NCBI GenBank assembly: GCA_031414595.1
Contig: JANNVX010000015.1
Coordinates: forward strand, 1 to 64,000
Length of the DNA stretch: 64,000 nt
Reading direction: 5' to 3'
Origin: Deinococcales bacterium
GTDB taxonomy: Bacteria > Deinococcota > Deinococci > Deinococcales > JAAFIG01
Under the pieces are notes generated by a model that was not told where the DNA came from, searched no databases, and worked only from the letters and a program-made list of their open reading frames with translations. Below are positions 45,931-48,100 of this stretch, one piece after another. Both the position numbers and the translations under genes were made by a program. Position 1 is the stretch's first letter, and the number at the start of each line of letters is the position of its first letter.

Positions 45931-47100
45931 TCACCTCTGCTCGAGTGGAATCCAATGTGCATCCGAAGGACCCGTATAATTGGCGGTCGGTCGCAAAATA
46001 CTGTTTTTATGGGTGTATTCGATGATGCTGGCTGTCCAACCTGCAATTCTCGAGAGTGCGAATATCGGGGTGAAGAAAGATTTTGGTAAGCCAAGGTCGG
46101 AGTAAACCACACCACTGTAAAAATCCACGTTAGGGTAAATGCCGCGACTGCCAAGGCGAGCCACAACAATCTCTTCGACTTTTTCGAGTGTGCTGTACGC
46201 TATGCTTTTACCGTGTTTATTGGCAACCACTTCGGCATATTCTTTAAGGACTCGAGAACGCGGGTCAAAGAATTTATAGACTGCGTGTCCGACCCCCATG
46301 ATTTTCTCTTTTCTCTCGAGTTTGGCGTTGATAAACGCTTCGGCATTTTCTGGACTGCCAATCAAAGCCAACATGTCCATCACAGCTTCGTTTGCTCCAC
46401 CGTGCAGTGGACCTTTTAAGCTACCTATCGCACTGGTGACACTCGAGTACATATCCGATAAAGTGCTGGCAGTGGCGATGCCTGTAAAGGTACTGGCGTT
46501 CATACCGTGGTCAGCGTGGAGAATTAAAGCAATATCAAATAATCTGGCTTGCTCGAGACTCGGTTCGGCATCGTGCAGCATGTACAAGAAGTTTGCTGCA
46601 TGACTTAATTCTGACTTTGGAGCGATTGGCTCTAGTCCTTGTTGTAAACGAAACAGGGCAGCGATAATTGTGGCGGTTTGGGCGGTTAAATTTAGCGCCT
46701 TGTCGAGTTTGCCGCTTTCGCTCACGTCATCGGCATGGTCATCAAACATTGCTAGGCTCGAGATGGCGGTTCGCAGGGCGTGCATCGGATGTAGGTTTTT
46801 TGGGTATAAACGCATCAGGGCGGTTAAACCACTGGGAATAACCCGGCGGGCTTTTAGCGCCAAATCAAAGGTCTCGAGTTCGGTTTGGCTGGGAAGACGA
46901 GCATTAAAGAGCAGAAAAGCCGTTTCTTCATAGGTGCTGTTCTCGGCGAGTTCTTGAATTGGAATGCCGACATATTTGAGGATTCCTTTTTCACCATCTA
47001 TAAATGAGAGCTTGGATTCGGTAAAAACCACGCCTTTTAACCCGTCCATGACGGCTGGCTTGGTGCTAATAGAAACATCTTGCGGGGTTGGTTGACTCAC
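45931..47100 (-). CDS. gltA: Citrate synthase
   Basis: HADHGMNAST, GPLHGGANE, GVGHAVY, DPR and YPNVDFYSG motifs. Confidence 0.93.
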   Translation of the reverse strand: MSQPTPQDVSISTKPAVMDGLKGVVFTESKLSFIDGEKGILKYVGIPIQELAENSTYEETAFLLFNARLPSQTELETFDLALKARRVIPSGLTALMRLYPKNLHPMHALRTAISSLAMFDDHADDVSESGKLDKALNLTAQTATIIAALFRLQQGLEPIAPKSELSHAANFLYMLHDAEPSLEQARLFDIALILHADHGMNASTFTGIATASTLSDMYSSVTSAIGSLKGPLHGGANEAVMDMLALIGSPENAEAFINAKLERKEKIMGVGHAVYKFFDPRSRVLKEYAEVVANKHGKSIAYSTLEKVEEIVVARLGSRGIYPNVDFYSGVVYSDLGLPKSFFTPIFALSRIAGWTASIIEYTHKNSILRPTANYTGPSDAHWIPLEQR

Positions 47101-47244
47101 TTTTAAGCTCCTTTGATTTTGGCACAGCCTTCAAAGTATTTTACACCTCGAGCCGTGCTGAATTACAGGTGTTTCTTAAGGAGTGATTAGAATACGTGCT
47201 TAAAGGTAAAACACAAAACGCAAACGTTTGTTACTTAAATCAAT

Positions 47245-47270
47245 AAAAAAGGGCGAACTTATGTTCGCCC
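47245..47270 (-). terminator. Intrinsic terminator of csp copy 1
   Basis: GGGCGAAC-N4-GTTCGCCC followed by T6 on the minus strand. Confidence 0.85.
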
Positions 47271-47288
47271 GAAAGTGGTCTGGTCGGA

Positions 47289-47495
47289 TTAAGCGCGGGT
47301 CACATTCGCTGCTTGTGGACCTTTGCCGTTCTTACCGTTTTCGATCTCGAGTTTTACACGAGTACCTTCTTCGAGATTACGGTAGCCATCACCTTGAATT
47401 GCGCTGAAATGCACAAATACATCTGGTTGACCTTCGACGCTGATAAAACCATAACCTTTTTCTGAGCTGAACCATTTAACTACACCTTCAATCAT
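47289..47495 (-). CDS. Cold-shock protein (copy 1)
   Basis: RNP1 KGYGFI and RNP2 VFVHF. Confidence 0.96.
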
Positions 47496-47604
47496 GAAAC
47501 TCCTTGCCGCTAATTATTGCGGGTACAACATAGCCAAGAACCACATCTGCTTGAGAATTCGCTTTGCATTTCACAAAGGCTCTCAAGTCGAACCCCGACT
47601 AGGC
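47496..47604 (-). promoter_or_regulatory. Structured 5' leader of csp copy 1
   Basis: -10 TATAGT at 47611-47616; stems covary with the leader of copy 2. Confidence 0.7.
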
Positions 47605-47666
47605 TCTATTACTATAGCAGATAATTGCCAAGTGTGTATGGGGTAATAAAATGTTGTAGTCGGTAC

Positions 47667-47692
47667 AAAAAGGGCGAACAGAATGTTCGCCC
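47667..47692 (-). terminator. Intrinsic terminator of csp copy 2
   Basis: GGGCGAAC-N5-GTTCGCCC followed by T5 on the minus strand. Confidence 0.85.
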
Positions 47693-47729
47693 GAGTGAGG
47701 TCTTAAAATTGCGCTAGAGGCTGGTTGTC

Positions 47730-47936
47730 TTAAGCGCGGTTGACGTTGGCTGCTTGTGGACCTTTGCCGTTCTTACCGTTTTCGATCTCGAGTTTTACGC
47801 GAGTACCTTCTTCGAGATTACGGTAGCCATCACCTTGAATTGCGCTGAAATGCACAAATACATCTGGTTGACCTTCGACGCTGATAAAACCATAACCTTT
47901 TTCCGAACTGAACCATTTAACTACACCTTCGACCAT
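47730..47936 (-). CDS. Cold-shock protein (copy 2)
   Basis: 66 of 68 aa identical to copy 1; RBS AAGGAG before ATG 47936. Confidence 0.96.
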
Positions 47937-48045
47937 GAAACTCCTTGCCGCTTTTCCTGCGGATAAAACCTGACTCGAGGACTGCATCTGCTCGAGTCTG
48001 ACCGCCGCATTTCACGGGGTCTCTCGAGTCGAAACTCGACCAAGC
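47937..48045 (-). promoter_or_regulatory. Structured 5' leader of csp copy 2
   Basis: -10 TACACT at 48052-48057, at the same 116-nt offset from the ATG as in copy 1. Confidence 0.7.
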
Positions 48046-48100
48046 AACAGTAGTGTAGCATAGAATTCAAGACTTTGTGCCTTTCGTAAACGTTTGTTAA

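Follow-up and report, generated by a model that had tools for sequence, protein, structure and literature searches.

Do two tandem cold-shock protein (csp) genes of a Deinococcales bacterium carry leaders that act as a regulatory RNA and reach into their own coding sequence (CDS), and could such an RNA sense temperature? The question is raised by a 64,000-nucleotide (nt) stretch of contig JANNVX010000015.1 (assembly GCA_031414595.1, positions 1 to 64,000), hereafter the window, in which a downstream csp gene (dn, 47289..47495) and an upstream one (up, 47730..47936) lie on the minus strand, as do all csp-associated features described below. Both open reading frames exceed the gathering score of the Pfam cold-shock domain family (CSD, PF00313; 88.2 bits for dn and 87.6 bits for up versus a cut-off of 27) and are thus members of that family; the closest solved chains to both proteins are CspB, CspD, and CspA. 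The real start of the up gene is the ATG at 47936, which lines up with all homologues. As had been noted in an original prediction made from the letters of the window, the two proteins of 68 amino acids are 66/68 identical (97%; the differences are I2V and T66N), and the leaders, though diverged to 71% identity over 104 nt, have kept an equal length, which is 109 nt in each case from the predicted +1 G to the base before the ATG. The same prediction had proposed several leader hairpins, a pairing between a leader loop and the coding region, and a candidate new RNA thermosensor. Comparative analysis within the genus makes the leader a good candidate for a new regulatory RNA, and we give about even chances to the reading that csp mRNA contains an intramolecular kissing loop between its 5' untranslated region (5'UTR) and its CDS, a weak contact favoured in the cold that controls mRNA stability or translation.

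In an alignment of 10 leaders from the genus (A1; 123 columns, mean column identity 76%), the RNAalifold consensus fold contained four helices, designated P1 to P4. P1 is a long-range stem between the first 11 nt and the region following GCAGAUG (dn, 47594-47604 with 47528-47538; up, 48035-48045 with 47968-47979), and in 10/10 leaders it begins at the predicted +1 G, 7 nt past the -10 box. P2 (dn, 47582-47586 with 47551-47555; up, 48023-48027 with 47992-47996) is the CUYGAG/CUCRAG stem of the original prediction, present as CUUGAG/CUCAAG in one copy of the window and as CUCGAG/CUCGAG in the other. P3 (dn, 47574-47578 with 47562-47566; up, 48015-48019 with 48003-48007) closes the apical loop UGAAAUG (dn, 47567..47573; up, 48008-48014). 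By consensus fold and pair counts, the whole 5'-terminal stem-loop domain extends over 47528..47604 in dn and 47968..48045 in up. It is followed by P4 (dn, 47507..47522; up, 47948..47962), the CCGC/GCGG hairpin, which had been correctly placed and lies 2 nt ahead of the Shine-Dalgarno sequence AAGGAG (dn, 47500-47505; up, 47941-47946).

Three other proposed elements stood only in part. The inner stem closing the supposedly invariant GUGAAAUGC is found in both copies, but the loop varies, as one genome of the genus has GUAAAAUGC. GCAGAUG occurs in both copies but is only partly conserved across the genus, and an upstream open reading frame at this site was discarded (no in-frame stop in up, 10 codons in dn, and no ATG in the leader from genome G006). 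The GUCG-N5-CGAC hairpin at the 5' end can form in both copies but is not a conserved element: RNAalifold did not return it, it is paired in 74% of the cells across the genus with 0 both-sided changes, and it also competes with P1. In the consensus it gives way to the long-range P1 that starts at the predicted +1.

The four helices are backed by covariation. Across P1-P4, 94.4% of 267 cells are paired and 10/27 pairs have changed on both sides; 0/500 shuffles matched either value, and slid controls paired 39-52%. P3 is paired in 94% of cells in the alignment of leader plus CDS, with 3/5 pairs changed on both sides, and in the P4 of G006 a G-C to C-G swap accounts for two of the 5 singleton changes of that sequence. 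In dn-type leaders, CUCGAG is replaced by CUUGAG/CUCAAG, so that the pairing is kept and the word is lost.

The fold extends into the coding region. In the alignment of the 10 leaders together with their CDS (A2; 327 columns), RNAalifold found without prompting a 6-bp hairpin in codons 27-33, here called HC (dn, 47399..47416; up, 47840..47857), whose 6-nt loop AUUUCA (dn, 47405-47410; up, 47846-47851) exactly complements UGAAAU of the P3 loop. The pairing originally proposed was between UGAAAUGC of the leader loop and GCAUUUCA in the Val-His-Phe-Ser (VHFS) codons (CDS nt 84-91), and this complementarity is indeed exact in both copies. Because the CDS partner is the loop of a conserved hairpin, however, the contact is better described as loop-loop, with both partners being apical loops of conserved hairpins. 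HC is paired in 100% of cells, with 1/6 pairs changed on both sides. This is its second pair (columns 201/216), formed by third codon positions, both synonymous, of Phe27 (TTY) and Ala32 (GCR). Five sequences have U-A here and the other five C-G, hence 10/10 are paired; a change from AGC to AGT in two sequences leaves a G-U pair. In single-sequence folds of the whole mRNA at 37 C, the predicted probability of HC is >0.8 in 8/10 sequences, and the P3 and HC loops are predicted to be mostly unpaired.

All six kissing pairs are possible in all sequences (6/6 in 10/10), one of them being G-C in 9 and A-U in 1. The deviating sequence, G001_up, has the sole changed leader loop (G to A in column 41) and also the sole CDS with TTT instead of TTC in the VHFS codons (a synonymous change in column 210), and the two positions are exact pairing partners. 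Across 327 columns this sequence has only 4 singleton substitutions (41, 210, 297, and 320), two of which are thus the kissing partners. The proposed loop-CDS pairing is therefore backed by one exactly compensatory double change, and the Watson-Crick complementarity of the loops is conserved with covariation from this single event. In a partner-swap control, which keeps the relatedness of the sequences and offers 310 candidate columns, column 41 was the sole fit for column 210 and column 216 the sole fit for column 201; for the both-side-changed pairs of P1-P4, 1 to 12 of the 310 columns were equally good partners (1-6 for the cleanest). When the kissing pairs are added as a pseudoknot, 96.7% of 369 cells in the whole structure are paired and 12/37 pairs have changed on both sides, which 0/500 shuffles matched, with slid controls pairing 33-47%. 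Both 6-mers, UGAAAU and AUUUCA, occur only once per mRNA, the one exception being a second site, AUUUUA, in the 3' UTR of G001_up. In dinucleotide shuffles, the complement between the leader and the 24-nt RNP2 region reached p values of 0.005-0.05 in each of the 10 genus leaders. Outside the genus, p was <=0.05 in only 3/73 csp loci, about the chance level, which rules out that such complementarity is a general property of csp genes.

In the mechanism that we propose, csp mRNA would start with the ~80-nt conserved stem-loop P1-P2-P3, followed by P4, and its Shine-Dalgarno sequence would be single-stranded. The UGAAAU of the P3 loop would pair with the AUUUCA of the HC loop in the same mRNA, mainly in the cold, when neither a ribosome nor Csp protein sits on the site; a contact of only 6 pairs, 5 of them A-U, should hold mainly under such conditions. 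Acting with the base-paired 5' end, the contact would shield single-stranded A/U-rich stretches and the terminus itself from attack by RNase J and RNase Y, thereby lengthening the life of the mRNA or raising its translation at low temperature. Warming, ribosomes, or accumulated RNA-melting Csp would open the contact again, the last of these creating a negative feedback. Of these elements, the helices, the loop complementarity, and their covariation are shown by the comparison; the cold dependence and its effects are inferred. The genome encodes both nucleases with scores above their family cut-offs (524.8 bits for RNase J and 614.6 bits for RNase Y). In organisms that have them, mRNA decay is slowed when the 5' end is paired and A/U-rich single strands are hidden, and this background, the presence of both enzymes, and the A-U-rich nature of the contact are the reasons for proposing an effect on stability or translatability in the cold. 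A further step, that the kissing contact itself is a new kind of bacterial cold sensor, being A/U-rich, formed only in the cold, and melted by heat, ribosomes, or the encoded chaperone, is a tentative idea that we regard as possible but doubtful. If it were true, a single tertiary contact would let the mRNA sense temperature as well as the protein it encodes, with no masked ribosome-binding site.

Several observations weigh against this mechanism. The contact is backed by a single compensatory event, and its calculated nearest-neighbour energy is weak: -2.3 kcal/mol for the 6-bp duplex at 37 C and -5.6 at 5 C, and 0.0 and -2.7 kcal/mol, respectively, for the all-A-U duplex of G001_up. On the CDS side, conservation of the VHFS motif in the protein (RNP2) accounts for most of its invariance, and as 13/54 synonymous third positions are invariant overall, the invariance of two more of them says little. 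The comparison comprises 10 sequences from 8 related genomes and two paralogue lines with gene conversion, so that independent events are few. Gene conversion also means that the U-A/C-G split in HC may stand for only one or two changes. It is suggested by the window itself, where the central CDS of the two copies is identical and differences are confined to stretches near the ends; in G001 and G004, by contrast, the counterpart paralogues differ at many synonymous sites, and this points to recent conversion between the two csp copies in the present genome. In addition, the folding z-scores of the two leaders are unremarkable (-0.49 and -1.21), P1 is rarely present in single-sequence folds of the whole mRNA, and the transcription start is a predicted one, as the available RNA-library contigs cannot show RNA ends. 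Between 5 and 55 C, the predicted accessibility of the Shine-Dalgarno sequence and the AUG follows no consistent trend, and the CUCGAG stems, inner P1 and P2, could partly be a by-product of a genome-wide excess of CTCGAG (see below).

Could the leader be simply a 5' stabiliser? On that account, the paired 5' end and P4 would block 5'-end-dependent decay at all temperatures, and the complementarity to the CDS would be coincidental. Several features would be compatible with a 5'-terminal stabiliser, among them a P1 that sits at the predicted +1 in 10/10 leaders and the presence of RNase J and RNase Y; no RNase E/G was detected in the genome, which is 94% complete. No pairing masks the Shine-Dalgarno sequence in the consensus fold of the leader alone, the needs of the protein account for the conservation of the VHFS codons, and by simple arithmetic some complementary stretch of 8 nt is no rarity when a leader of 110 nt is compared with a CDS of 207 nt. 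A coincidence would not be expected, however, to connect two apical loops whose hairpins are each backed by compensatory changes, nor to place two of the only 4 singletons of G001_up on pairing partners, with column 41 as the sole fit for column 210 among 310. We consider the stabiliser without a contact unlikely.

The two loops might instead be binding sites for Csp protein. Here the A/U-rich loops would serve autoregulation without pairing with each other, a proposal in line with their predicted single-stranded state and with the canonical cold-shock domains of the encoded proteins. A preprint on E. coli also describes CspA as binding mainly to apical and internal loops of its own mRNA (bioRxiv 10.1101/2021.05.24.445485). 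Protein binding, though, predicts neither complementarity of the loops nor their matched complementary change, and as a replacement for the contact we deem it improbable. As an addition it would be compatible with the kissing contact, as the feedback arm described above.

A more sceptical view denies any RNA function and attributes the structure to shared ancestry of the duplicates, gene conversion, and the abundance of CTCGAG. This hexamer occurs 349 times in the window versus 14.3 expected (for example at 47147, 47346, 47787, 47974, 47991, 48023, and 48234) and 23,235 times in the 4.49-Mb genome versus 972 expected, a 24-fold excess that amounts to about one copy per 193 bp. In 3-kb samples, all five genera of the family show the excess (11-36 copies, where about 1 would be expected); two neighbouring families have it in mild form, and high-GC Deinococcus-like and Thermus-like genomes lack it. 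A similar phenomenon is HIP1 of cyanobacteria (PMC5861425), and the portion of the literature covered by a search held no account of it for this lineage. As the word is a palindrome, any two copies can pair, which makes inner P1 and P2 of up-type leaders weaker evidence; the up leader alone has 3 copies. The identical central CDS of the window copies and the weak folding z-scores of the leaders also suit this explanation. Yet P3, P4, HC, and outer P1 lack CTCGAG and have nonetheless changed on both sides, the hexamers of dn leaders have mutated in a compensating way (CUUGAG with CUCAAG), and slid and partner-swap controls that keep relatedness do not reproduce the pairing. Only a small chance is left to an absence of RNA function. 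Smaller still is the chance that the leader belongs, in diverged form, to the cspA thermoregulator family of enterobacteria, RF01766. The sub-threshold match to this family (26.3 bits, E 1.3e-4, over 47247-47604) stays far under the gathering score (78) and extends over the entire dn mRNA; its alignment has high posterior probability in the coding part and skips 53/74 model positions in the 5'UTR part, and the leader here is 109 nt long and of different architecture.

That match was the best one obtained with permissive settings in the Rfam/Infernal search; at gathering score, the 64-kb window gave none with Rfam 15. Together with the covariation of the stems, this result upholds the proposal of a distinct structured cis element in these csp mRNAs.

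Its designation as an RNA thermosensor is not supported so far. In a classical RNA thermometer the Shine-Dalgarno sequence or start codon is paired in a conserved structure, and this is not the case here. The Shine-Dalgarno sequence is unpaired in the leader-only RNAalifold consensus; in the consensus of the whole mRNA, 6 pairs connect it with CDS columns 293-299, and none of them has changed on both sides. Its predicted unpaired probability ranges from 0.28 to 0.79 without a consistent temperature trend. As to two alternative temperature-dependent folds of one mRNA, as in RF01766, folding predictions at 5-55 C give no consistent switch, and an alternative fold is favoured in only 2/10 leaders. 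Leader-only folding at 37 C places the P1-P4 model within <=1.5 kcal/mol of the minimum in 6/10 leaders, 3.1 and 4.3 kcal/mol above it in two others, and 7.5 and 10.0 kcal/mol above it in G001_up and in G000_up, the up copy of the window. The latter has three CUCGAG hexamers and prefers an alternative fold that combines the 5' hairpin with a second one, formed between the CUCGAG strand in the middle and the one at the 3' side. Although this second hairpin is paired in 85.5% of cells across the genus leaders, a two-state switch built on it was rejected: the alternative is preferred over P1-P4 only in G000_up, ties with it in G001_up at 10 C, and lags behind it by 4 to 24 kcal/mol in the remaining 8 leaders, so that it is no feature of the family. 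"Thermosensor" is thus a hypothetical label for which folding predictions give no consistent switch.

The leader is restricted to one genus. Seven of its 8 species-level genomes have it, in 10 copies that always lie directly upstream of csp, and three genomes have the tandem csp pair; the eighth genome, which gave no match, has a completeness of 84%. When built from the 10 copies, a covariance model recovers all of them at E <=1e-18. It found no credible copy in 11 other genomes of the family, where a match in G009 lies inside a transporter gene and was rejected, and a 150-genome sample of the rest of the phylum gave only one match, at E 0.088. In metagenome contigs, a pattern scan for the Shine-Dalgarno sequence and CDS start yielded 0 matches, and a protein-based scan yielded 80 loci, the best 74% identical, none of them with the leader; a scan of genome contigs added no species beyond those already in the set. 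The comparative evidence is shallow. Elsewhere in the genome, 20/673 UGAAAUG sites have a P3-like stem of at least 4 bp. Four of these were inspected, three in long open frames and one (on contig C3) in no open frame; none is next to csp, and a regulon of such hairpins was dismissed on this ground.

The covariance model additionally returned a deletion remnant in G003 at E 0.004 (L145, 1500-1600; G003:C63), situated upstream of the intact csp gene of that genome. In this remnant of an up csp copy, only the first half of the leader, up to and including the 3' strand of P2 (CTCGAG), is left and continues directly into the last ~23 codons of the CDS, as would result from a deletion between the hexamer of the leader and a TCGAG word in the K-F/L-E-I-E codons. 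The genome of the window has a third csp paralogue (L011, G000:C33:16941-17129) that is 62% identical and has an unrelated leader; its VHYS region could form a hairpin with the loop AUUACA, and no complement in its leader was noticed by eye, a dedicated search not having been made. In another genus of the family (locus L019 of G008), a csp leader has an 11-nt perfect complement between position -93, its very 5' end, and CDS nt 148-158, which 0/100 shuffles matched and which overlaps a TCGAG word. Just ahead of the Shine-Dalgarno sequence lies an alternative pairing partner for this 5' segment, and the complement may represent an analogous UTR-CDS contact made from a different sequence.

The leader is a new, genus-restricted addition to a known theme, the self-regulation of csp mRNAs through leader structure and UTR-CDS pairing. 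Although csp mRNAs are the textbook cold-sensing RNAs, the mechanism is known essentially for one enterobacterial family. According to the preprint cited above, the 37 C form of E. coli cspA contains a long helix between the 5'UTR and CDS nt 232-326 (bioRxiv 10.1101/2021.05.24.445485), and the cspA mRNA is longer-lived at 10 C (PMC9411577). E. coli cspA and the leader described here share a long structured leader on the mRNA of a major cold-shock protein and a pairing of 5'UTR and CDS. The pairing itself differs, being an interrupted long helix in E. coli but a 6-8 nt loop-loop contact with codons 27-33 in Deinococcales, and the alternative temperature-dependent folds of E. coli contrast with the predicted folds here, which show no consistent switch. 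A structured 5'UTR in a csp mRNA is also shared with Staphylococcus aureus cspA, where a long 5'UTR hairpin is reportedly processed by RNase III and tied to mRNA stability. The Deinococcales genome, by contrast, encodes no RNase III above cut-off (best match 28.3 bits versus 166; 94% completeness), and we know of no UTR-CDS loop contact in the S. aureus mRNA. Thermus thermophilus belongs to the same order of bacteria, and a stem-loop in its csp 5'UTR is said to have been proposed as a cold sensor. In the Thermus-like leaders compared here, the 5' end is likewise paired close to the Shine-Dalgarno sequence; sequence and architecture are different, and these loci have no conserved complement to the RNP2 codons except for an 8-mer in 1/3 of them. 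Finally, the proposed contact resembles the kissing loops of antisense and viral RNAs in having two apical loops, 6-7 complementary bases, and conserved closing stems, but here both loops reside in one bacterial mRNA, one in the leader and the other in the coding region. At the level of titles and the beginnings of abstracts, a literature search returned nothing on this leader or on any loop contact between csp UTR and CDS. If the kissing contact is real, an unrelated leader with a loop-loop reach into the CDS would be a second, simpler solution to the same task, and reporter fusions without the first 100 nt of the CDS can miss the regulation. The locus offers a clean pair of mutations, one in the leader loop and one synonymous in the CDS, and, from an uncultured Deinococcales lineage of freshwater, a well-delimited candidate new RNA family.

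Extended -10 boxes read from the sequence and found in a promoter scan are TGCTATAGT for dn (47611..47619) and TGCTACACT for up (48052..48060), and the predicted +1 is the G 7 nt past the box, at 47604 and 48045, respectively. A box of the TGnTAnnnT type stands at a constant distance from P1 in 10/10 leaders, one copy having AG instead of TG. In freshwater metatranscriptome runs, one RNA-library contig covers 47437-47587, that is, the start of the CDS and most of the dn leader, and a second one, of depth 55, covers the dn CDS (47289-47506) with 5 differences. These contigs are consistent with transcription of the leader, bearing in mind that they show no RNA ends and that RNA libraries may hold DNA. 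The runs containing the stretch are labelled as freshwater sediment and biofilm metagenomes, and the best ones may include the source sample. One DNA run has the loop variant of the G001_up type; its contigs stop short of the partner site in the CDS and hence provide no independent test of the contact. A metatranscriptome contig (X18, record 9) links 47312 to 47730, with 417 nt skipped and 4 other letters in between, and stems either from a relative with a single csp gene or from a chimeric assembly of the paralogues.

Each csp gene of the window is followed by a hairpin resembling an intrinsic terminator, at 47251..47270 after dn and at 47672..47692 after up, both found by sequence scan. The pair is bracketed by a 15-nt direct repeat, TAACAAACGTTT(G/A)CG (47219-47233 and 48085-48099), that has no further occurrence in the genome. 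One copy of the repeat lies ~40 nt upstream of the up csp start and the other between the dn csp terminator and a citrate synthase gene (45931-47100, minus strand). Similar words also stand upstream of up-type csp genes in other members of the genus, and the repeat could represent either a shared operator or a relic of the duplication.

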